A stretch of 64,000 nt of DNA from Candidatus Dadabacteria bacterium. GTDB taxonomy: Bacteria; Desulfobacterota_D; UBA1144; Nemesobacterales; CSP1-2. Position 1 is the stretch's first letter. Every line of letters starts with the position of its first letter. Both the position numbers and the translations under genes were made by a program. Of the stretch, positions 7,665 to 39,944 are shown in pieces. The stretch is from assembly GCA_963805855.1 (NCBI GenBank), contig CAWDVW010000007.1, positions 192,001 through 256,000 on the forward strand, read 5' to 3'. A model generated the notes under the pieces. It did no database searches. It was given only the letters and a program-made list of their open reading frames with translations, and had not been told where the DNA came from.

Positions 7665-8375
7665 CTACATTACAAGACCCTTAAGTAAATGTCCCACCAA
7701 ATATGCGATCGCAGCCGCGGCACCACCCATAAATAATGTTCCTACTCCCGAGATGATCCAATTGGTTTCTAAAATCTTGCCTTTGATCGAGCCAACTATG
7801 AACAGCGCGCAGGACGTCAGAAGGAATGATATCGGAAAGGTTTGCGCGGCTATTAAGTCAAAAAAGTGAGAAAATAAGTATGCGAGAAGTGGGATTATGC
7901 CGATTATGTTAAAAGCGAAAAAGGTTACAAAGGCGCCTTTTAATGGTGATTTCTGCTCTTCAATAATCCCCAGCTCATCCTTCATCATTGTGTCTATCCA
8001 GATCCTTCTATCACTCGTAATAATCTCAACGGCATCATCGAGCTGCTTCCCTCTGAACCCTTTATCCCTAAATATCTCTCTGATCTCGTGTTTCTCTATC
8101 TCTGGCTCTTCGTCTATGTGAGCCTCCTCTATTCTTTTTGCTTTCTGAACATATTCATGTGTTGATTTCAGGCTCATGTAATTCCCTACGGCCATCGAAA
8201 ACCCGTCGGCCAGGAGATTGGCGAAGCCCAAAATAAGTACGATGGATGCGGAAAGCGATGCCCCTTCGACACCCGAGACGACAGCGAAAGTTGTGACGGT
8301 TCCATCCAGACCTGCAAACACGAAGTCGGATATGTAGGTGCCGCTTGATGATCCCGTGTATATATTCTCTGACAT
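7665..8375 (-). CDS. VIT1/CCC1 family iron/manganese transporter
   Basis: GLDGTVTTFAVVSG, ANLLADGFSMAVGNY, MMKDELG motifs. Confidence 0.93.
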   Translation of the reverse strand: MSENIYTGSSSGTYISDFVFAGLDGTVTTFAVVSGVEGASLSASIVLILGFANLLADGFSMAVGNYMSLKSTHEYVQKAKRIEEAHIDEEPEIEKHEIREIFRDKGFRGKQLDDAVEIITSDRRIWIDTMMKDELGIIEEQKSPLKGAFVTFFAFNIIGIIPLLAYLFSHFFDLIAAQTFPISFLLTSCALFIVGSIKGKILETNWIISGVGTLFMGGAAAAIAYLVGHLLKGLVM

Positions 8376-29534: not shown

Positions 29535-30656
29535 ATGAAGGTCCTAATGCTCAGTTATGAATTTCCCCCATTGGGAGGGGGTGGAGCCAAGGTCGTTTAT
29601 GGATTAACAAATGAACTGGCCAGGCTGGGACATGAGGTTGATATTGTTACCATGGGATTTAGAAACCTGCCTAAACATGAAAAATTAGACGATACTAATA
29701 TCTATAGAGTTCCTTGTCTTAGAACTAGCGAGTCAATTTGCTCAACACCCGAAATGGTCTCATACGCATTGTCTGCAATTCCGTTTGTTTTAAGACTTAT
29801 AAAGAGCAAACATTATGATATCAATCATACCCATTTTATCTTCCCGGATGGTCTAGTCTCCTATCTGATGAAGAAGATAACAAGACTACCCTACATTATC
29901 ACGGCACATGGTTCTGATGTGCCCGGTTATAATCCCGATCGATTTAGAATTGAGCATAAGATTCTTTCACCGCTCTGGAAAAAGATTGTTAAGGATGCGG
30001 ATCAACTTGTTTGCCTTAGCGAAACCCTTAAATCACTCGTGAATGAACATTACTCCGGTGATAATGTCTCTGTGATCCCAAATGCAATAGATTTGGATAG
30101 ATTTGAGCCAGTCAAAAAAAAGCATAAAAAAATACTTATTGTAAGCAGGATGTTTGAAAGAAAAGGAATCCAACACTTTCTAAAGGCCTTGGATGGATTA
30201 GAAAATAACCATGATATAAACATAGTTGGTGACGGCCCCTATTTGCAAACCCTTAAACAGATGGTTGATGGCCAGAGTAAAAAGATTAAGTTTTGGGGAT
30301 GGCTTGACCATACATCAAGTGAATTAAGGGACTTATATCAGACTTCTAGCGTTTTTGTGTTTCCGTCTGAGTCTGAGAATTTTCCAATTGTCCTCTTGGA
30401 GGCAATGGCAGCGGGTTTAGCAATAATTACAACGAAAAATACAGGGTGTGAGGAGGTGGTTGGAGATTCGGCCTTATTGGTTGAATCAAGAAATCCCATA
30501 GCTATAAGTGGGGCGTTAACTATGCTTATCGATAATCCTGGGTTATGTAGGGAGTTGGGAAAGGCAGCGAGAAGTAGAGTCGAGAACAATTTCAATTGGA
30601 CTGCTGTTGCTGGGCAATATACTAAGTTGTATAAGAAATATGCAATTAACCAGTAG
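29535..30656 (+). CDS. Glycosyltransferase family 4
   Basis: EFPPLGGGG, HGSDVPG, ENFPIVLLEAMA. Confidence 0.93.
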   Translation: MKVLMLSYEFPPLGGGGAKVVYGLTNELARLGHEVDIVTMGFRNLPKHEKLDDTNIYRVPCLRTSESICSTPEMVSYALSAIPFVLRLIKSKHYDINHTHFIFPDGLVSYLMKKITRLPYIITAHGSDVPGYNPDRFRIEHKILSPLWKKIVKDADQLVCLSETLKSLVNEHYSGDNVSVIPNAIDLDRFEPVKKKHKKILIVSRMFERKGIQHFLKALDGLENNHDINIVGDGPYLQTLKQMVDGQSKKIKFWGWLDHTSSELRDLYQTSSVFVFPSESENFPIVLLEAMAAGLAIITTKNTGCEEVVGDSALLVESRNPIAISGALTMLIDNPGLCRELGKAARSRVENNFNWTAVAGQYTKLYKKYAINQ

Positions 30657-30703
30657 TCTTATATATGATATAATACAAATTGAGTTTTTTATTTGATTTC
30701 AGT

Positions 30704-31598
30704 ATGTTAAAAAGTTTTAAAATTGACTTTATTGGTATTGGGGCACCCAAATCAGGTTCGACCTGGTTATTTAATTGCTTAGGATTACATCCAAGGATAT
30801 GTTTATCAGTACCGAAAGAAATAAAATATTTCAATCACATAGACTATACGAAATATATTCGTAACTTTCAGGATAATAATTTAGTAAATAAAAATCATTA
30901 TAAACCACTTTCTTGGTATGAAAGATGTTTTAAACATTGCCATCAAGATTCTATTAAAGGAGAGTTTACACCATCATACCTCTTCGATGATAACGCTCCT
31001 TTATTAATCAGAAAGAACTTCCCCGATATTAAATTGATAGCATGCCTTAGAAATCCTATTGATAGAGCCTATTCAAGTTATTGGGCAAAAAGAAATTATA
31101 CGAAAAAGGAAAAATTATCCTTTGAAGAAGCGATAAAAGAGGGTCTAATGTATATCGAAGGCGGTTTGTATCACAAACATTTAACTCGATATCTAAACTG
31201 TTTTAGAAAGGAGCGAATTCTCATATTATTATTCGATGATATTGTTTTATGGCCAGAGAAAGAAATAAAAAAAGTATTTGAATTTCTAGATGTGGACTCA
31301 ACAGTCAAACTGAATTTGGGGGCAGTATCAATTAACAAAGTCTAAGAAAAGTTGGATTCCTTTCATTAGTTTAATCATGAAAGACTTTCCTAATTTATTA
31401 ATTGATAAGAATCTAGGGCACTTGTTACATATGGCTAGAATGGTTGGTATGAGGGAGTTTTTTTTTGGTCTGACGACAAGTCCTTTCACATATCCAGAAA
31501 TGAATCCCAATACAAGGCAATATTTGAGAAGCGTATTTGATGATGACATAAGGCAATTAGAAAAACTCTTAAATCGTGATTTATCTCAGTGGAAATAA
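30704..31598 (+). pseudogene. PAPS-dependent sulfotransferase (Sulfotransfer_1/3), split by a 1-nt frameshift
   Basis: GAPKSGST (5'-PSB), RNPIDRAYS (3'-PB). An extra A at 31337-31339 separates the C-terminal ...TRQYLRSVFDDDIRQLEKLLNRDLSQW. Confidence 0.85.
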
Positions 31599-31700
31599 AA
31601 AATACTGTCGGACAGATTGGTTGTTTCAATCTGAAAATTGCTAATCATAATTTAAAGACAGAGTGTGATAATTTCAAATATTTCATTTAATAATTACACT

Positions 31701-31781
31701 TTTGGGTTAAGTGTCGAAAAATTAAAAGATCACACGTGGCAAAATGCTCAGGTGATTAGAGAGTTTGTGCGAAAGGCATAG
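31701..31781 (+). pseudogene. Possible 3' remnant of a deleted glycosyltransferase
   Basis: Reads ...KDHTWQNAQVIREFVRKA* and stops 12 nt before the next ATG; resembles GT4 C-termini. Confidence 0.3.
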
Positions 31782-31793
31782 TCAAAAGTTATT

Positions 31794-32921
31794 ATGAGAA
31801 TATGTTTAATCTGCGTTGAGATATTCGCTTGGGGAAAGTATGGAGGGTTTGGACAAGCTACGCGGATAATTGGTCGTGAACTGGCGAAACGGGGAATTGA
31901 GGTTTTTGCCGTCGTTCCAAGGCGAAAAGGCCAGAAACCCGTAGAAGAGTTAGATGGGATTACTGTTTTAAGCTTTCAACCCAATTTCCCTTGGTCTTCA
32001 ATCGAGTTGTACAGAAAATGCAATGCAGATATTTATCATTCACAGCAACCTTCATTAGGTACTTACCTGGCGATGAAGGCAATGCCTGACCGAAAGCATA
32101 TCACTACATGCAGAGATCCAAAAAATACATATGATTGGAGAATTGAAATAGGTCTTGCTTCCCTCAGCAAACTCAAAGTTTTGGCTAGTTACCTATATGA
32201 GGACAATTTCTTAGTTAAAAAAGCTGTTATTCGTGCAGACGGTGTATTTTGTGCAGCTGACCATTTAGTCCCAAAGGTCAAATTCAAATACGATCTAAGG
32301 TCTGTTCCCTCTTTACTTCCTACACCTGTTGCCGTGCCTGGAAATGTGAAAAAAGCAATTACCCCAACTGTTTGTTTTTTAGCCCGTTGGGATAGAAGAA
32401 AAAGACCAGAATTATTCTTTGAACTGGCAAGGGAATTTCCACGAATTATATTCATTGGAATTGGTATAGCTCAGGATAGTAAGTGGGATAATTACCTTAG
32501 AAAAGCATATTCGAAGTTGCCGAATCTGGAGATGACTGGTTTTATAGATCAGTTTTCTACAAATGATTTATCTAGCATTCTTGAAAAAAGTTGGGTCTTA
32601 GTGAATACCTCAATGAGAGAAGGTTTACCCGTTTCATTCTTGGAGGCTGCTGCAAATAGATGTGCAATACTTAGTGGAGTGGACCCAGATGGTTTTGCAT
32701 CAAAGTTTGGATACTGTGTTAAAGATGATAATTTTGTAGAGGGGTTGGAATTTCTATTGGAGGATGACAGGTGGAAGGAAAGAGGAGAATACGGGTATGA
32801 ATACATAAAAGAAACATTTGAAATGAACAAGGCTATTAATAGGCATATCGATGTATATGAGCAAGTTTTAAGTAAAAAACCTCGTGCTTCTGTCACGGGG
32901 TTTTTTGCTCGTATTGTTTAA
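31794..32921 (+). CDS. Glycosyltransferase family 4
   Basis: GKYGGFG, RKRPE, REGLPVSFLEAAA. Confidence 0.92.
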   Translation: MRICLICVEIFAWGKYGGFGQATRIIGRELAKRGIEVFAVVPRRKGQKPVEELDGITVLSFQPNFPWSSIELYRKCNADIYHSQQPSLGTYLAMKAMPDRKHITTCRDPKNTYDWRIEIGLASLSKLKVLASYLYEDNFLVKKAVIRADGVFCAADHLVPKVKFKYDLRSVPSLLPTPVAVPGNVKKAITPTVCFLARWDRRKRPELFFELAREFPRIIFIGIGIAQDSKWDNYLRKAYSKLPNLEMTGFIDQFSTNDLSSILEKSWVLVNTSMREGLPVSFLEAAANRCAILSGVDPDGFASKFGYCVKDDNFVEGLEFLLEDDRWKERGEYGYEYIKETFEMNKAINRHIDVYEQVLSKKPRASVTGFFARIV

Positions 32922-32926
32922 ATAGA

Positions 32927-34549
32927 ATGAATAAGAAAACTGAAAAAGGTAACAAGGATAAGAATCCTGTATTCGTGATTGGATTAGATGGTGCTGAGTA
33001 CTCTCTAATACAGAAGTGGTCTCGGGACGGGTATCTACCGGCAATTACTTCGCTAATTGATAAAGGTTGCTGGGGGATTTTAGATTCAACAGGAGATATA
33101 TGCAGCGGTACCGTGTGGCCTAGTACTATTACTGGTCTATCACCATATAAGCACGGGGTTTTTTATGGACATCGGGAGTTTAAAAGTGGTACATATAGAA
33201 TATATAGGAAGTACCCTGATCAGGTAGATGGTATTCATTTTTGGTACTGGCTTAGCAAGGCAGGAAAAAGGCTTGCTATTTTTGACATACCTCATACATA
33301 TCCATTTAAGGGACTTGATGGGATCCAGATAGTCGCCTGGGGAGCTTTTTCGCCAAGCTGGAAGATGTCTTCTTGGCCCCCTGGACTTATCAAAGATCTT
33401 GTATCACGATTTGGAACTCATCCTCTATCGGGTTGGTATGAAAGAGTGCCTAAAACGATAGATGATTACCAGGAAATATGCTCAAAATTAATTTCTGGAG
33501 TGAAGAAAAGGAGTGAAATCTCTGCTTATCTTTTGAAAAAAGAAATTTGGGATATCTTTTTGGTGTCCTTTTCAGAAACTCATTGGGCCGGACATCTGCT
33601 TTGGCATCTGGTAGACGAGCGACATCCTTTTTACAAACCACAGTCTCCGGATTCCATAAAAAATTTAGTTCGTGACCTTTACTCGGCAATTGATTCTACT
33701 ATATCAAAACTTTTCGAAGCATACCCAAATGCTACTTTTCTAATATTCTCTCCAGAAGGTATGGGACCAAATTTTAGTGGAAACCATCTTTTGCCTGAAA
33801 TTCTAAACAGACTGGGTATGGGAAGAACCATGCAAGATAAAAAACTATCTGCAGGATTATCAATTTTTGCTGAGAAAATAAGCCAGTTAATGCCGGGTAA
33901 AAAAACGGGATCCAAGGTAATTAGGACTGTCGAAAGATTAATACCTTTTAAAGTAATAGAATTAGCAAAAAAAACGATTCCTAAAAAGATTTGGGATAAT
34001 TGGACTCGTCGCCTAGTTTATGCGGGAAATGATTGGCGAAGTAGCAAAGCCTTCATGATACCAGGTGAGTACTCTGGTGCGATCCGAATAAATCTCAAGG
34101 ATCGTGAACCCAATGGATTAGTACAACCTGGAAAGGAATATGATGAGGTCTGTGAAGAACTTATTGAAAGACTAACTTGTTTGGTCAATGTTGATACGGG
34201 GCAACCTGCCGTAGATGAGGTCGTGAGATTGGATAAGGTGTTCAACACTAATGATGTTAAGCACTTTCCCGATATTTTAGTGAAGTGGAAAGGAGATGCA
34301 CCTATAAAGCAGTTATACTCCGAACGAATTGGAACAATTCATGGGGAAAGCAATGAGGTGAGATCGGGAGCTCATAGACCTCATGGATTTCTGATAGCTA
34401 GTGGAAAGGGGATTTGTAAGGGGAAAGTTGTAACAGGGGGCAACATAATGGATTTGGCGCCTACTATTCTATATCTTCTAGGACAATCAATTCCCGCGGA
34501 AATGGATGGGAAGGTTTTAATGGATATGTTTGACAAAAAATCTCAATAG
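32927..34549 (+). CDS. Alkaline phosphatase superfamily (type I phosphodiesterase/NPP-like) protein A
   Basis: IGLDGA, W.S..TG..P.KHG, INLKDREPNG, GAHRPHG, DLAPTIL..LG...P..MDG. Confidence 0.9.
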   Translation: MNKKTEKGNKDKNPVFVIGLDGAEYSLIQKWSRDGYLPAITSLIDKGCWGILDSTGDICSGTVWPSTITGLSPYKHGVFYGHREFKSGTYRIYRKYPDQVDGIHFWYWLSKAGKRLAIFDIPHTYPFKGLDGIQIVAWGAFSPSWKMSSWPPGLIKDLVSRFGTHPLSGWYERVPKTIDDYQEICSKLISGVKKRSEISAYLLKKEIWDIFLVSFSETHWAGHLLWHLVDERHPFYKPQSPDSIKNLVRDLYSAIDSTISKLFEAYPNATFLIFSPEGMGPNFSGNHLLPEILNRLGMGRTMQDKKLSAGLSIFAEKISQLMPGKKTGSKVIRTVERLIPFKVIELAKKTIPKKIWDNWTRRLVYAGNDWRSSKAFMIPGEYSGAIRINLKDREPNGLVQPGKEYDEVCEELIERLTCLVNVDTGQPAVDEVVRLDKVFNTNDVKHFPDILVKWKGDAPIKQLYSERIGTIHGESNEVRSGAHRPHGFLIASGKGICKGKVVTGGNIMDLAPTILYLLGQSIPAEMDGKVLMDMFDKKSQ

Positions 34550-34649
34550 ATATCCTTAACCTTTCGTGTAATGACAGAGGTCATATTTAATACAGTCTTT
34601 TTCTCAAGTTTCTTTTTAATTTTATTTATACACAAAAGGTGGTTTTTAA

Positions 34650-36203
34650 TTGTATAAAAAGCCAAGGGTGCTTGTAATTTGTGTCGCTGAAGCTACCCTA
34701 GATCTTATTACTCCGTGGGCCGAATTCGGAAAGTTGCCTACATTTCGTACATTGGCGACGGAGGGGGTTTCAGGCCCCCTTCGCTCGCAGATTCCAATCA
34801 GTATTCCCCAGTTGTGGGGAACAATTGTCACCGGAAGGTCTCCAGGCCATCACGGACTGTTTGATTTTTGGCAGCGTGGCCCTGACGGAGCGTTTCATGA
34901 AATCAATAGCTCTCACATCCAATCAAAAACGGTATGGAAAATCATTAGTGAGAATGGACTAAGGTCTGGGATAGTAAATATTCCAATTGTTTATCCACCT
35001 GAAAAAATTAATGGTTTTATGATATCGGGAGAAGTTGCCCCCGGTGCCCATCGTTCTATAGCCTATCCATCCAGTCTATACGATGAGATCGTCGATAAAT
35101 TTGGCAGGTATCGTCTCAAGGACATATTTCCAGGCGGACGCCAAAAATCTGATTATCTTGGATTGATCGAGGAGGATGTCGCTAAGCAGACGGAGGTCCT
35201 TGAATATCTCATATCCAGGAAGGAGTGGGACTTTTTCTTTACTTTCTATAGTGCTACTGCTATAGCTCAACATTATTTTTGGTCAGATATGGAAACCGGA
35301 GATGAAAATAATCCCTTTCGAAGTGTAATTGAAAGTGCATACAGGTGTATTGATTCAGCACTAGGCCGTTTAATCAACGGGGCGGGCCCGGATACCACAG
35401 TCTTTGTAATCTCTGAATGTGGTGCAGGACCTTTGTATTCAGGTGTTCAGATCAATTCATGGCTAGAGAAAGAAGGCTTTTTAACTCGTAAGAGAAGAAC
35501 ATCAGAAGCATTGATTGGATCAACGCCATTAAGCTATATTCAATACTGGTTACGTGGAATTGTTGCTGAATTTAGAAAAGATGCTCAGGGATTCCTCCCT
35601 AAATCTGCCTTTTACTGGATGAATCATAATATGAAGAGTATCAAAGCATGGATTCAAACTTATTTATCTAGTTCGGATATTGATTGGTATAGAACTAAGG
35701 CCTTTTCACGAGGGAAGGAGGGAAACATATATATAAATTTGAGGGGGCGAGACCCCCATGGGGTTGTCAATCCTGGATCGGGTTATGAAAGCCTAAGGGA
35801 AGAGATTGTTAAACGTTTAAATCAACTTATCGATCCTAGTACAGGGATTAGGGCTGTTGAAAACGTTTACTGCCGCGAAGAACTTTACGATGGTCCGATG
35901 GTCGAATGGGCACCTGATTTGATTATCGAGTGGCGTGATACCGCTTACGAGCCAACAGAGAGCGATCGGGACAGGGACTCTATTTTTGTAACACGTTGGC
36001 GTGAATATATGAATTGGCCGACATCTGGAAGCCATAGGATTGATGGGGTTTTATTCGCAAAGGGCCCTCGAATTGATAAATCAAAAAAGGTAGAGGATGC
36101 GCGTATAATAGACATGATGCCAACGTGGCTATATTGTTTGGATCAACGAATTCCCTCTGAGTTAGAGGGCCGTGTGATTTTAGAGCTTTTCGATGATCAT
36201 TAG
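34650..36203 (+). CDS. Alkaline phosphatase superfamily protein B (divergent)
   Basis: TGRSPGHHGLFDF, INLRGRDP.G, GSHRIDG, DMMPTWL; TTG start. Confidence 0.88.
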   Translation: MYKKPRVLVICVAEATLDLITPWAEFGKLPTFRTLATEGVSGPLRSQIPISIPQLWGTIVTGRSPGHHGLFDFWQRGPDGAFHEINSSHIQSKTVWKIISENGLRSGIVNIPIVYPPEKINGFMISGEVAPGAHRSIAYPSSLYDEIVDKFGRYRLKDIFPGGRQKSDYLGLIEEDVAKQTEVLEYLISRKEWDFFFTFYSATAIAQHYFWSDMETGDENNPFRSVIESAYRCIDSALGRLINGAGPDTTVFVISECGAGPLYSGVQINSWLEKEGFLTRKRRTSEALIGSTPLSYIQYWLRGIVAEFRKDAQGFLPKSAFYWMNHNMKSIKAWIQTYLSSSDIDWYRTKAFSRGKEGNIYINLRGRDPHGVVNPGSGYESLREEIVKRLNQLIDPSTGIRAVENVYCREELYDGPMVEWAPDLIIEWRDTAYEPTESDRDRDSIFVTRWREYMNWPTSGSHRIDGVLFAKGPRIDKSKKVEDARIIDMMPTWLYCLDQRIPSELEGRVILELFDDH

Positions 36204-36239
36204 GTGATGAAACAAGTCACGGAATTTGGGGGAGTGAAA

Positions 36240-37226
36240 ATGAATTACAGATCATTTGGTAGTACAGGTTTAAAGGTTTCAGAGATAGGGTTTGGGTGTT
36301 CACGTATTGGCGGAGGTGTAATAAAAAAGGATAATACGGAATCAATTCGACTTCTGCTCAGGGCATATGAGCTAGGTGTGAATTTTTATGATACTGCTGA
36401 TACATATACAAATGGTCGAAGTGAAAAACTGATCGGAAGAGCCTTTAAAGATCTAAGAAGCCACATAGTAATTGCCAGCAAAGTGGGAATGGTACACTCG
36501 TCTCTTTATCGTTTAGGTAAGACTTTATTACCTGCTCTAACACCAATTCACCGTGTAATCGAACCTTGGAAGAGTACTCTTAAGAAAGTATCAAAACGCA
36601 GGCAAGAATTTTCACCTTTATATATAAAAAAATCTATAGAAGAAAGCTTAAGTAGGCTAAAAACAGACTATCTCGACTTATATCAGCTTCACAGCCCTCC
36701 GACGTCGATAATAGAACGGGGAGAAGTATGTGAAACTCTAGATCTTCTAAAGTCTCAGGGCAAAATTCGATTTTATGGGATATCTGCTAAAACGATCGGC
36801 GATGCTATTTTGTCTCTAAAATATATAAATATCTCTTCCCTCCAAGTTGAGTTTAATCTCTTACAGCAGGAGGCTTCAAAAGAGCTCTTTCCCCTAGTGG
36901 AGGAGGAAAAAATCGCAATTATTGTTCGAGTTCCTTTAGCAAGGGGGTTGCTTACAAAAAATATGACTGACAAAAGGGGCGAGGTCTTGAATAGAAGAGA
37001 GTTACAAATATCAAGGGCAAAGGCGACAGGACTATCCTTTCTGGTGAATGAGAAGCGTGACCTGGCTCAGGCAGCACTCCGATTTGTCTTAAGCCATCCC
37101 CAGGTCTCTGTGGCAATTCCGGGGATAAGCCAAGTAAAACACTTAGAGGATAATATCAGAGCCTTAGAAGCCCCACCGCTGACAGGAGAAGCACTGGAAA
37201 AGATTGCTTTATTGAATAATCACTGA
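36240..37226 (+). CDS. Aldo/keto reductase, catalytic tetrad intact
   Basis: G.TGLKVSEIGFG, YDTADTY, ASKVG, LYQLHSP. Confidence 0.92.
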   Translation: MNYRSFGSTGLKVSEIGFGCSRIGGGVIKKDNTESIRLLLRAYELGVNFYDTADTYTNGRSEKLIGRAFKDLRSHIVIASKVGMVHSSLYRLGKTLLPALTPIHRVIEPWKSTLKKVSKRRQEFSPLYIKKSIEESLSRLKTDYLDLYQLHSPPTSIIERGEVCETLDLLKSQGKIRFYGISAKTIGDAILSLKYINISSLQVEFNLLQQEASKELFPLVEEEKIAIIVRVPLARGLLTKNMTDKRGEVLNRRELQISRAKATGLSFLVNEKRDLAQAALRFVLSHPQVSVAIPGISQVKHLEDNIRALEAPPLTGEALEKIALLNNH

Positions 37227-37310
37227 TGGTTCTTTCAGGGAACGATTAATACAAAGAATTCGAAAGTATGCAATTAAAAGACAAATCAAATAGTGTAAAA
37301 AAGACCAGCG

Positions 37311-38894
37311 ATGAGAAGTGACCCTATAATAGTTATTGGATTCAATGGCGCGGAGCATCAGCTGATCCAAAAATGGTCAGACGAAGGATACTTACCGACA
37401 ATTGCCTCTCTAATGGAACGTGGCTGCTGGGGTAGGATAAATTCTACTGGGGATATATCCAGTGGGTCTGTATGGCCCACTTTTTTAACCGGCGTTTCTC
37501 CTGCTAAACATGGCGTATTTTACGGACATCGAGAGCTAAAGATAGGTACATATCAGATATACAAAAAATACGCCGACCAAATCAAAAGTAAACCCTTCTG
37601 GTACAGGCTGAGCAAAGCCGGGAAAAGGATAGCTATCTTCGACATTCCTTATACCCATCCGCTTAAGGGACTTAATGGGATTCAGATAGTAGCATGGGGA
37701 GCTTTTGCTCCAAGCTGGAAGATCTCATCTTGGCCTCCTCGACTTATCAAGGAAATTTTAACACGATTTGGCGACCATCCTCTCGCAAGTTGGTATGAGC
37801 AAAGACTTAAAACCATCAACGAGTATGAGGAGTTTTTCAAAAGGTTGATTTCAGGGGTGGAGAAAAGAGGTCTAATCTCGGCGTATCTCCTAAACCAAGA
37901 GCCTTGGGACTTCTTTTTAATGGCGTTTTCAGAAGCGCACTGGGCAGGACACCTACTTTGGCATGTCATGGATGATAAACATCCTGATCATAACCCTCGG
38001 ATAGCTGAGACCTTTAAAAATGCAATTCGAGACGTTTACTCGGCAATCTCAAGACTTATTGAAATTATCCCCCAAGCTACCGTTTTCATTTTCTCTCTGG
38101 ATGGTATGGGGGCTAACTACAGTGGGAAGCATCTGCTGCCTGAGATTCTTAAAAGAATTGGTATGATTGAAAGGCCCGCTCAACCTAAAAAGCAATCCAG
38201 AATCGTATCGAGCACACTTGTTACCATAAATCAGTTGATGCCGACTGGGAGATGGGGATATAACTCTATTAGAAATGTTGAGAGTTTAATCTCTATCAGG
38301 CTAATAGAGATCGCTAAGAAGTTGCTGCCACAGAAGTTTTGGGATTATTGGACTAGTCGCACTCTTTATGCCGGTAACGATTGGCGATGGAGTAAAGCCT
38401 TCTGTGTGCCAAACGAATTCCATGGATCAATCCGAATTAATCTTAGAGGCCGCGAGCCTAATGGGTTAATTGAACCTGGTATGGAGTACGACGAACTTTG
38501 TGAGGAACTCACCGAAAAACTTAGTAGCTTGGTAAACGTAGATACGGGAGGAAATGCTGTCAGTGAGGTTATAAGGTTGGACCGGTTCTATCAAGGAGAG
38601 AATATCTCTGAGCTTCCGGATCTCGTTGTAAAATGGGTAGGAGATGCACCGATCAGGGCACTGCATTCTCCACACGTGGGCACCATTAAGGGGGAACCTC
38701 TCGATTTTCGGACAGGAGCGCATAGACCGGATGGCTTTCTAATAGCTTCTGGAAAGGAAATCTGTAAGAGAAAAGTCTTAGAAAATGGGAGTGTTATGGA
38801 TATAGCACACACTATCTTATACCTAATGGGTCAATCTGTTTCCCGAGAAATAGAGGGTAAGGTTTTGATCGATATAGTAGCTGAAAACTTTTAG
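37311..38894 (+). CDS. Alkaline phosphatase superfamily protein A' (close paralog of 32927-34549)
   Basis: Long near-identical blocks, e.g. GIQIVAWGAF.PSWK.SSWPP, HWAGHLLWH, YAGNDWR.SKAF. Confidence 0.9.
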   Translation: MRSDPIIVIGFNGAEHQLIQKWSDEGYLPTIASLMERGCWGRINSTGDISSGSVWPTFLTGVSPAKHGVFYGHRELKIGTYQIYKKYADQIKSKPFWYRLSKAGKRIAIFDIPYTHPLKGLNGIQIVAWGAFAPSWKISSWPPRLIKEILTRFGDHPLASWYEQRLKTINEYEEFFKRLISGVEKRGLISAYLLNQEPWDFFLMAFSEAHWAGHLLWHVMDDKHPDHNPRIAETFKNAIRDVYSAISRLIEIIPQATVFIFSLDGMGANYSGKHLLPEILKRIGMIERPAQPKKQSRIVSSTLVTINQLMPTGRWGYNSIRNVESLISIRLIEIAKKLLPQKFWDYWTSRTLYAGNDWRWSKAFCVPNEFHGSIRINLRGREPNGLIEPGMEYDELCEELTEKLSSLVNVDTGGNAVSEVIRLDRFYQGENISELPDLVVKWVGDAPIRALHSPHVGTIKGEPLDFRTGAHRPDGFLIASGKEICKRKVLENGSVMDIAHTILYLMGQSVSREIEGKVLIDIVAENF

Positions 38895-38951
38895 AGTTTT
38901 TCGATGCTCGTTCGTTGGTGAAAAGAGCAATTGAGATTTGAGAGGGTTCGC

Positions 38952-39944
38952 ATGAATTATAGATTGTTTGGGCAAACTGACTTAAGCGTCTCTGAGATTG
39001 GATTAAGCTGTGCATCGTTGGCTGGAGGCCTATACTATAAAAATGATCGTGAGTCTCTAATGACTTTGCTGCAGGCTTTTGATTCAGGCATCAATTTCTT
39101 TGAGACCTCTGATTCCTGGGGTCAGGGAAACAGTGAAAGGCTTGTTGGTGAAGCATTTAGAGGCAGAAGGGATAGTATCATAATCACAGGTAGAGTAGGT
39201 GTTGATTTTTCGACCTTAGGAAATCTCGCTTTGAGAACGAGAACCCTGCTCCGGCCTGTAAGTCGCTTTCTTCGCCCAATGAGTGGCTACCTTTACAAGG
39301 TCCGCACATCGCAGAAGCGAAAGGATTTTTCACAAAAACACCTAACGGAAGCGATTCACGGAAGCCTGAAGCGTCTACAGACCGACCATTTAGATCTTTA
39401 CCAATTGTACGGACCGCCGTCATCTGTGTTAGAAGAAGGGGATTTCTGTGAAACATTTGAGAACCTAAAGGCTCAGGGAAAACTCAGATATTATGGTGTC
39501 GTCTGTGATACAGTCAATGATGCTTTAATCTGTTTAAGTCTTCCTGGCATCTCTTCGATTCAAGTCGATATTAGTCTATTAGACCAAGAGGCTATCACTA
39601 AGGTTTTACCTTTAGCATCGGAGAGGAAACTAGCTGTAATTGCTGGTCATCCCCGAGCAATGGGTCTTTTAACAAATGATCTTAGCGACATTATGGGAGA
39701 TACCTCATCATACAACCGAACAGAATTAGTAAATAGAAAAAACAGAGCCAGGTCGTTGCAGTTCCTTACCAAAGAAAATCGCACATTGGCTCAATCCGCA
39801 CTCCGGTTTGTCTTGCAGCTTGATGGAGTCTCAATTGCGCTGCCACGAGCTATAGATCGCGTGCAGCTCGATGAAAATCTCGGAGCGCTGTCTGCTCCGC
39901 ATCTGATGAAGGAAGAACTTGAAAAGATTCGCTTGTTGTCATAA
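38952..39944 (+). CDS. Aldo/keto reductase-fold protein with a substituted catalytic tetrad
   Basis: FETSDSW, TGRVG, LYQLYGP in place of DTADxY, K and H. Confidence 0.88.
   Translation: MNYRLFGQTDLSVSEIGLSCASLAGGLYYKNDRESLMTLLQAFDSGINFFETSDSWGQGNSERLVGEAFRGRRDSIIITGRVGVDFSTLGNLALRTRTLLRPVSRFLRPMSGYLYKVRTSQKRKDFSQKHLTEAIHGSLKRLQTDHLDLYQLYGPPSSVLEEGDFCETFENLKAQGKLRYYGVVCDTVNDALICLSLPGISSIQVDISLLDQEAITKVLPLASERKLAVIAGHPRAMGLLTNDLSDIMGDTSSYNRTELVNRKNRARSLQFLTKENRTLAQSALRFVLQLDGVSIALPRAIDRVQLDENLGALSAPHLMKEELEKIRLLS

Follow-up and report, generated by a model that had tools for sequence, protein, structure and literature searches.

A protein belongs to an aldo/keto reductase (AKR) family when it shares 40% identity or more with one of the family's named members. 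Kv-beta proteins (AKR6) retain Asp, Tyr and Lys at the catalytic positions and are redox-active, and KidO is an AKR without the catalytic Tyr. In the standard AKR mechanism, as set out in the excerpts of PMC8524200 used here, Tyr56 is the acid/base and is tuned by Lys, Asp and His; in the same excerpts, tetrad mutations almost abolish the activity of COR, and His>Glu at the tetrad His switches the chemistry of the steroid 5-beta-reductase AKR1D1. The Papaver 1,2-dehydroreticuline reductases (DRRs), with the tetrads DYMP, DYML and DYNP, are active NADPH reductases (excerpts of PMC11522673 and PMC8524200), and the substitutions Y56F or D51A lower DRR activity 168- to 4667-fold (PMC11522673, same excerpts). 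Nematode AKRs that lack the tetrad are described in PMC11296255, the consulted part of which leaves their activity untested, and KidO of Caulobacter is presented in the sections of PMC7083601 used here as a bacterial NADH-binding oxidoreductase homologue with regulatory roles. We found no literature on AKRs with DHKY, DYKY or EWRY tetrads, or on the type of gene cluster described below, in a search that covered the subscription journals, which are rich in AKR enzymology, only thinly.

An intact AKR gene with replaced catalytic residues

The window, which is the whole 64,000-nucleotide stretch of Candidatus Dadabacteria DNA that was analysed, contains two AKR genes, AKR1 and AKR2 (45% identity in a pairwise alignment; Table 1). 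The frame of AKR2 is free of internal stops, and its product scores 123.5 bits against PF00248 (cutoff, 24; E = 1e-35), which makes it a member of the AKR superfamily. Alignment to AKR1, 1ynp and 1pz1 puts E51, W56, R81 and Y153 in the Asp, Tyr, Lys and His columns, so that AKR2 departs from the tetrad of canonical AKR carbonyl reductases at every position, each time with a larger residue. The motifs quoted in the earlier note, FETSDSW, TGRVG and QLYGP for AKR2 and YDTADTY, ASKVG and QLHSP for AKR1, match the translations exactly, and its claim that all four catalytic residues are swapped in an intact full-length frame is borne out by the alignments, the codons and the recurrence of the replacements in eight other protein clusters. 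By its sequence, AKR2 would be classed as a pseudoenzyme, as the catalytic motif is gone and the gene is intact and selected.

Structure modelling, also proposed in that note, gave a confident (beta/alpha)8 AKR barrel (AlphaFold; pLDDT 92.5, pTM 0.91). The top Foldseek matches of the model are all AKR-family structures (best, 1ynp at TM 0.76 and 1pz1 at TM 0.78), and matches in the ESM Atlas are generic AKR clusters only. Sequencing error as the origin of EWRY was ruled out by identical residues in independent records; in addition, one contig of run X1, which may be the source sample, covers all four codons with 0 differences. The reading of AKR2 as a pseudogene was ruled out by its dN/dS and by the absence of listed indels in four runs. 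A scan for promoters and terminators found 34 promoter-like sites in comparison with 31.9 expected.

Table 1 Positions in the window of AKR2, its replaced residues and the genes of its cluster
Feature	Positions	Strand	Basis
GT4 glycosyltransferase, opening the cluster	29535..30656	+	domain match
Sulfotransferase, PF00685, 221 aa	30680..31345	+	domain match
GT4 glycosyltransferase	31794..32921	+	domain match
PF01663 protein, GLDGAE type	32927..34549	+	domain match, motif
PF01663 protein, AEAT...SECGAG type; found ahead of the AKR array in most family loci	34650..36203	+	domain match
AKR1, canonical D-Y-K-H, same insert; distant paralogue, not the parent of AKR2	36240..37226	+	alignment, tree
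Alkaline-phosphatase-superfamily PF01663 protein, directly upstream of AKR2 and likewise of the EWRY gene in L100/L101	37311..38894	+	domain match
AKR2 (P0001), EWRY clade, AKR-fold protein, 330 aa	38952..39944	+	PF00248, AlphaFold, Foldseek
E51, tetrad Asp column, codon GAG	39102..39104	+	alignments
W56, tetrad Tyr (general acid) column, codon TGG	39117..39119	+	alignments
R81, tetrad Lys column, codon AGA	39192..39194	+	alignments
Basic amphipathic insert, residues 86–126, likely membrane anchor	39207..39329	+	sequence, model
Y153, tetrad His column, codon TAC; candidate relocated general acid	39408..39410	+	alignments
HPRAMG loop, H233–G238, with clade-gained R235	39648..39665	+	sequence comparison
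P298-R299 to E308-N309, retained segment at the predicted adenosine 2'-phosphate side of the NADP(H) site	39843..39878	+	motif mapping, COR numbering, excerpts of PMC11522673

Judged by profile, fold, tetrad and sequence identity, AKR2 is an AKR-superfamily member that is not a canonical carbonyl reductase, an AKR11, a KidO or a Kv-beta protein. Its best matches are AKR11 enzymes (E = 7e-29; AKR11C1, 1ynp/1ynq; AKR11B GSP69, 1pz1; AKR11A IolS, 1pyf), with which it shares the barrel (TM 0.76–0.78) and the layout of motifs. Its identity to 1ynp, 1pz1 and 1pyf is 21–29%, below the 40% that AKR11 membership takes. Unlike AKR2, 1ynp and 1pz1 show the D-Y-K-H tetrad in the alignments and lack a helix of about 30 residues, and strand 8 ends with P-R in AKR2 but with P-G in 1pyf. 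Kv-beta has the same fold (TM 0.74–0.76), and the score of AKR2 against the Kv-beta model TIGR01293 is 51.4 bits, under the cutoff of 365.4; given the tetrad residues and redox activity that Kv-beta retains, it is a poor comparator, although the earlier note had proposed it. The KidO model (NCBIfam PRK14863) gives no match to AKR2 at E ≤ 0.001 and 32.7 bits for AKR1 (cutoff, 244), and the context of KidO is cell division, in contrast to glycan synthesis for AKR2. In the excerpts cited above, the DRRs resemble AKR2 in having a naturally substituted tetrad and in having lost the nicotinamide-stacking residue, but these plant, iminium-reducing enzymes keep Asp and Tyr56, whereas AKR2 alters all four positions; mammalian AKR1D1 has one substitution and keeps the catalytic Tyr. 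By analogy, Papaver DRR is the nearest precedent for an active tetrad variant and KidO the nearest for a non-catalytic role.

The EWRY clade and its ancestry

Alignment of homologues, the first check that had been suggested, shows that E/W/R/Y defines a conserved clade of nine protein clusters (72–88% identity to the query; SH-aLRT 100); beyond the eight clusters other than that of AKR2, the combination recurs in loci L100 and L101. Among 12 further members of these clusters, all nine near-full-length proteins are EWRY and three fragments miss some of the sites. Our first tally, of AKR1 and the best 120 of 409 protein-search matches (121 sequences), comprises DYKH (60), DHKY (40), EWRY (9), DYKY (8), DYKQ (1), DNKY (1) and two fragments. 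A profile search (best 120 of 311 matches) recovered the same nine EWRY clusters at 675–700 bits, with the next match at 592, and added 31 new proteins, none of them an EWRY intermediate; the enlarged set (n = 152) contains 79 DYKH, 52 DHKY, 9 EWRY, 8 DYKY and 4 others. All 231 non-EWRY homologues of at least 290 aa have Asp and Lys, none of a further 148 50%-cluster representatives is EWRY (DYKH accounts for 125), and the best 12 of 61 shorter proteins include no further EWRY fragments and no intermediates of the EYKY or DWKY kind.

With AKR2 as the query, no EWRY orthologue was found in 60 related genomes, nor at E ≤ 1e-45 in 119 more genomes from the class, among which G006 alone has a family member (DYKH). 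On these sequence comparisons the gene is patchily distributed among its kin. Two related genomes carry broken insert-bearing AKR family genes (L008, G002:C137; L012, G011:C70). The DHKY lineage is widespread, occupying L021–L033, L037, L102, L104 and L106–L110 (for example, L024:10001-10993), mostly in tandem with one or two canonical paralogues; for experiments it may be preferable to EWRY. In a separate event, Nitrososphaerales AKRs in L088, L093, L095 and L099 have an E-Y-K-H tetrad, in which Asp>Glu is the only change.

We built a quick IQ-TREE tree from 115 family proteins (300 aa or longer) with six outgroups, dropping six shorter proteins and using SH-aLRT support only; it contains an 83-row clade (SH-aLRT 98) marked by P-R at 298–299. 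Nested within it is a 52-row lineage (SH-aLRT 98) that has Tyr at the His position in 52 of 52 rows and H (39), W (9), Y (3) or N (1) at the canonical Tyr position; most of this lineage thus shows a reciprocal Tyr/His swap (D-H-K-Y). The EWRY proteins form a single clade (SH-aLRT 100) inside this Tyr153 lineage, and AKR1 lies near the base of the family. His>Tyr also occurs separately in other insert-bearing branches (five DYKY rows outside the P-R clade). With the root set by distant outgroups, we infer that His>Tyr came first and that D>E, K>R and W56 followed on a branch whose length is 0.12 changes per site. The four changes were therefore not simultaneous, because His>Tyr is older and common to the large D-H-K-Y lineage, and they do not form a single event relative to AKR1. 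A recent tandem duplication of AKR1 as the source of AKR2 was rejected as well, as grouping AKR1 with five EWRY proteins gives p-AU = 3e-6 (29-row subset).

AKR1 and AKR2 are preceded by similar DNA (window 36150–36260 and 38862–38972), and in L100 near-identical leaders precede the AKR1 remnant and the EWRY gene. The similarity of these leaders points to past duplication or recombination of PF01663–AKR units.

Selection on AKR2

Comparison of the window with one independent coding sequence, that of L100 (L101 differs by one base), gives AKR2 a dN/dS of 0.21, and four neighbouring genes 0.17, 0.24, 0.17 and 0.25. AKR2 is thus under purifying selection, like its neighbours. Contigs from four runs list no indels within AKR2 and at least 39 strain differences, and those listed comprise 23 synonymous and 13 non-synonymous codons (pN/pS ~0.18). 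For DHKY pairs with pS <0.65, dN/dS is 0.09–0.16 in 22 of 23, and 0.34 in one close pair.

These data largely refute the explanation that AKR2 is a redundant paralogue drifting towards loss, its tetrad changes fixed by chance, which we regard as very unlikely. Its dN/dS is higher than that of most DHKY pairs (about 0.1), family genes are broken in the related genomes G002 and G011, and AKR2 has a private R154>G (GGA in the window, AGA in L100; Arg in eight of nine EWRY clusters). Against this, the frame is intact in nine clusters down to 72% identity, dN/dS matches that of neighbouring genes, the listed strain differences give the low pN/pS above, and the AKR2 pocket is more conserved than the remainder of the protein. 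The earlier note had held that orthologues keeping D/Y/K/H and relaxed selection throughout would count against it; we found the reverse on both points.

The PF01663 gene directly upstream of AKR2 reads FNGAE in place of the FDGAE of its L100/L101 orthologues, a private loss of what is likely a metal ligand. Together with R154>G, this hints at some erosion of the cluster in the source genome.

Across the nine EWRY sequences, 163 of 330 columns (49%) are invariant, so the invariance of the four tetrad sites alone is weak evidence. Conservation of at least 90% in 78 other P-R proteins marks 85 sites, nine of which (G19, D51, H55, K81, K111, H115, Y130, K154 and R232) are switched in every EWRY member. 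A list of cofactor-pocket residues, mapped by motif from excerpts of PMC11522673, holds five of the nine switched and 10 of the 76 unswitched sites (Fisher p = 0.007), and within the EWRY clade 21 of 30 pocket sites are invariant compared with 142 of 300 elsewhere (p = 0.014); both p-values are overstated and indicative, because the list was applied after the switched sites had been seen and related sequences are not independent. A conserved clade, its dN/dS and this enrichment agree with the proposal that the substitutions were selected and not random.

Cofactor site and pocket

Motif mapping from the same excerpts, on sequence only, indicates that AKR2 keeps the NADP(H)-site residues Q204, G238, R299, E308 and N309 and alters others (G19S, S184V, R232G and N>C185). 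Near the nicotinamide, EWRY members have G19>S/C, S184>V and R232>G/N; the stacking position itself is G232 in AKR2, where Arg stood, just before the HPRAMG loop. Four new polar residues (D186, D206, H233 and R235) are invariant and predicted to face the pocket in 9 of 9 EWRY members. The standard AKR mechanism is very likely closed to AKR2, as Trp cannot serve as the acid/base in place of Tyr56.

One explanation is that AKR2 carries out no chemistry and binds NADP(H), an anionic glycan precursor or both at the membrane, as a sensor, carrier or accessory subunit. We consider this a real possibility that remains less than probable. No canonical tetrad residue is left, every change adds bulk that could simply fill the active site, and contacts at the nicotinamide end are altered while the adenosine end is retained. 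The canonical Tyr position also tolerates H, W and N within the 52-row lineage. By contrast, a Tyr/His swap in 52 proteins and the conversion of Asp-Lys to Glu-Arg exceed what simple loss would need.

Insert and gene cluster

Both AKRs bear a basic, amphipathic insert, as had been noted, and a helix of this kind is common to the cluster-linked AKR family. Its length is about 30 residues (44 against 13–15 over the matching span in insert-less AKRs) and not the ~35 first given. Residues 86–126 include 10 K/R and 1 D/E, the hydrophobic moment (0.76) is the maximum within AKR2, and the model predicts a single helix at residues 88–120. These features suggest that the helix is likely a membrane anchor.

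AKR2 ends a co-oriented cluster (29535–39944) in the order GT4, sulfotransferase, GT4, two PF01663 genes, AKR1, PF01663 and AKR2. We mapped 48 loci (the window, L002, L021–L051 and L100–L114; the last few per series are distant AKRs, L024 and L107 are near-copies and a few AKRs were missed under longer opposite-strand frames), which contain genes for PF01663 proteins (31), GT4 (26), flippase-like PF03706 proteins (22), GT2 (15) and Gfo/Idh/MocA dehydrogenases (8). Their typical arrangement is GT4, GT4, PF01663, an array of one to three AKRs, PF03706, GT2, GT2, Gfo/Idh/MocA and PF01663, and such AKR-array clusters occur in Ignavibacteria, Bacteroidetes, Gammaproteobacteria and Omnitrophota. In genome G000, a PF03706 homologue (33% identity) lies on a separate contig, and tblastn gave no match to the Gfo/Idh/MocA protein of the clusters at E ≤ 1e-8.

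The window sulfotransferase may be truncated, as its L040 homologue has 295 aa; window positions 31346–31793 hold no ORF of at least 80 aa. The PF01663 protein encoded at window 34650–36203 belongs to a conserved type (for example, L024:8359-9957) with AEAT and SECGAG in place of the usual metal-ligand motifs DG and SDH, and the cluster may thus hold another enzyme that has been rewired or has lost activity. L106 encodes, at 7983–8270, an AKR of 95 aa that has a large internal deletion, and an intact DYKH paralogue follows just downstream. An apparent 1,017-aa AKR fusion in L049/L050 was not used, as its N-terminal part reads as an alternative frame in GC-rich DNA.

A further alternative is non-redox or cofactor-recycling chemistry, in which AKR2 would be an epimerase or dehydratase that binds NADP tightly, or a cofactor-free enzyme using E51, R81, Y153, D186, D206 and H233. 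The pocket-facing polar residues of the clade are compatible with it, and oxidation–reduction remodelling of sugars would suit clusters of which 8 of 48 include a Gfo/Idh/MocA dehydrogenase. Our searches gave no structural or literature precedent, G000 lacks a match to that dehydrogenase, and we judge the alternative unlikely.

A canonical AKR is also present in 19 of 24 DHKY/EWRY loci, the other five being contigs of 1.1–8.6 kb, and canonical family members are often alone in their loci. An accessory subunit would show this pattern, and it counts towards a pseudoenzyme. KidO, in the partial text of PMC7083601, offers a regulatory oxidoreductase homologue as a parallel, against which stands the lack of a KidO-model match for AKR2. 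In L100 and L101, which are otherwise colinear with the window, 36312–37310, the body of AKR1, is missing; the remnant (L100:4480-4600; L101:1077-1190) consists of the first ~25 codons running into the start of the next gene, and the EWRY gene is intact. Persistence of an EWRY gene where AKR1 is deleted speaks against a pseudoenzyme and weakens the suggested scaffold or partner role with AKR1; the two contigs span only 7.7 and 5.5 kb, and a further AKR could sit past their ends.

A possible rewired enzyme with a migrated tyrosine

We propose that AKR2 may be a membrane-attached NADP(H) oxidoreductase with a rewired site that acts on the membrane-bound anionic sugar precursor of the cluster, a reading to which we give just short of an even chance. 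The insert helix would dock the barrel onto the cytoplasmic face of the membrane, and NADP(H) would be held by Q204, R235, G238, R299, E308 and N309. In an ancestor, the tyrosine serving as general acid would have left position 56 for position 153, formerly that of His, producing D-H-K-Y. In the EWRY clade, Asp-Lys would then have been lengthened to Glu-Arg, which would retain an ion pair that could polarise Tyr153, and Trp at position 56 would have become a platform on which the substrate stacks. Hydride transfer would take place on a lipid- or nucleotide-linked sugar, in a reaction unlike that of the canonical paralogues of the same cluster.

The choice between a rewired enzyme and a pseudoenzyme is close, and we lean slightly to new chemistry. 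The rewired enzyme is favoured because Tyr153 is constant in the lineage while position 56 has been freed, because the exact Tyr/His swap in 52 of 152 homologues is under strong purifying selection, because Asp-Lys became Glu-Arg with acid/base character retained in place of inert residues, and because the EWRY gene outlasts AKR1 in L100/L101. The enrichment of switches in the pocket, the dN/dS of AKR2, the active DRR variants of Papaver and the migration of catalytic residues in other families (pseudokinases, in excerpts of PMC10211241 that leave AKRs unmentioned) also count for it. Counted against it are the bulkier residues, the eroded nicotinamide contacts, the canonical AKR in most DHKY/EWRY loci, the private G154 of AKR2 and the invariance of about half of the clade's columns; in addition, the known active tetrad variants in the consulted parts of PMC11522673 retain Asp and Tyr56, and the losses of activity in tetrad mutants of DRR and COR weigh in the same direction.

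For the family as a whole, we regard it as possible, and somewhat short of probable, that these are membrane-anchored AKRs in which the tyrosine migrated (D-H-K-Y) and EWRY then replaced the rest, and that they are active in a new lipid-linked sugar-tailoring step.

Implications

D-Y-K-H is taken to be the hallmark of AKR catalysis, and Asp and Tyr are kept in the active variants compared here from excerpts of the published work. Our analysis adds a selected AKR clade in which all four tetrad positions are replaced, inside a wider lineage with a Tyr/His swap. DYKH, DYKY, DHKY and EWRY form a natural series on one scaffold (45–88% identity), often beside canonical paralogues, which makes the mobility of the tyrosine and the boundary between rewired enzyme and pseudoenzyme testable. 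The locus also draws attention to an uncharacterised surface-glycan cluster of GT4, PF01663 proteins, an AKR array, a flippase-like protein and GT2. If AKR2 is inactive, it would represent a conserved family of bacterial AKR pseudoenzymes that is unrelated to KidO by the profile test. If the reading of a migrated tyrosine holds, AKR2 would catalyse its reaction without any canonical tetrad residue.
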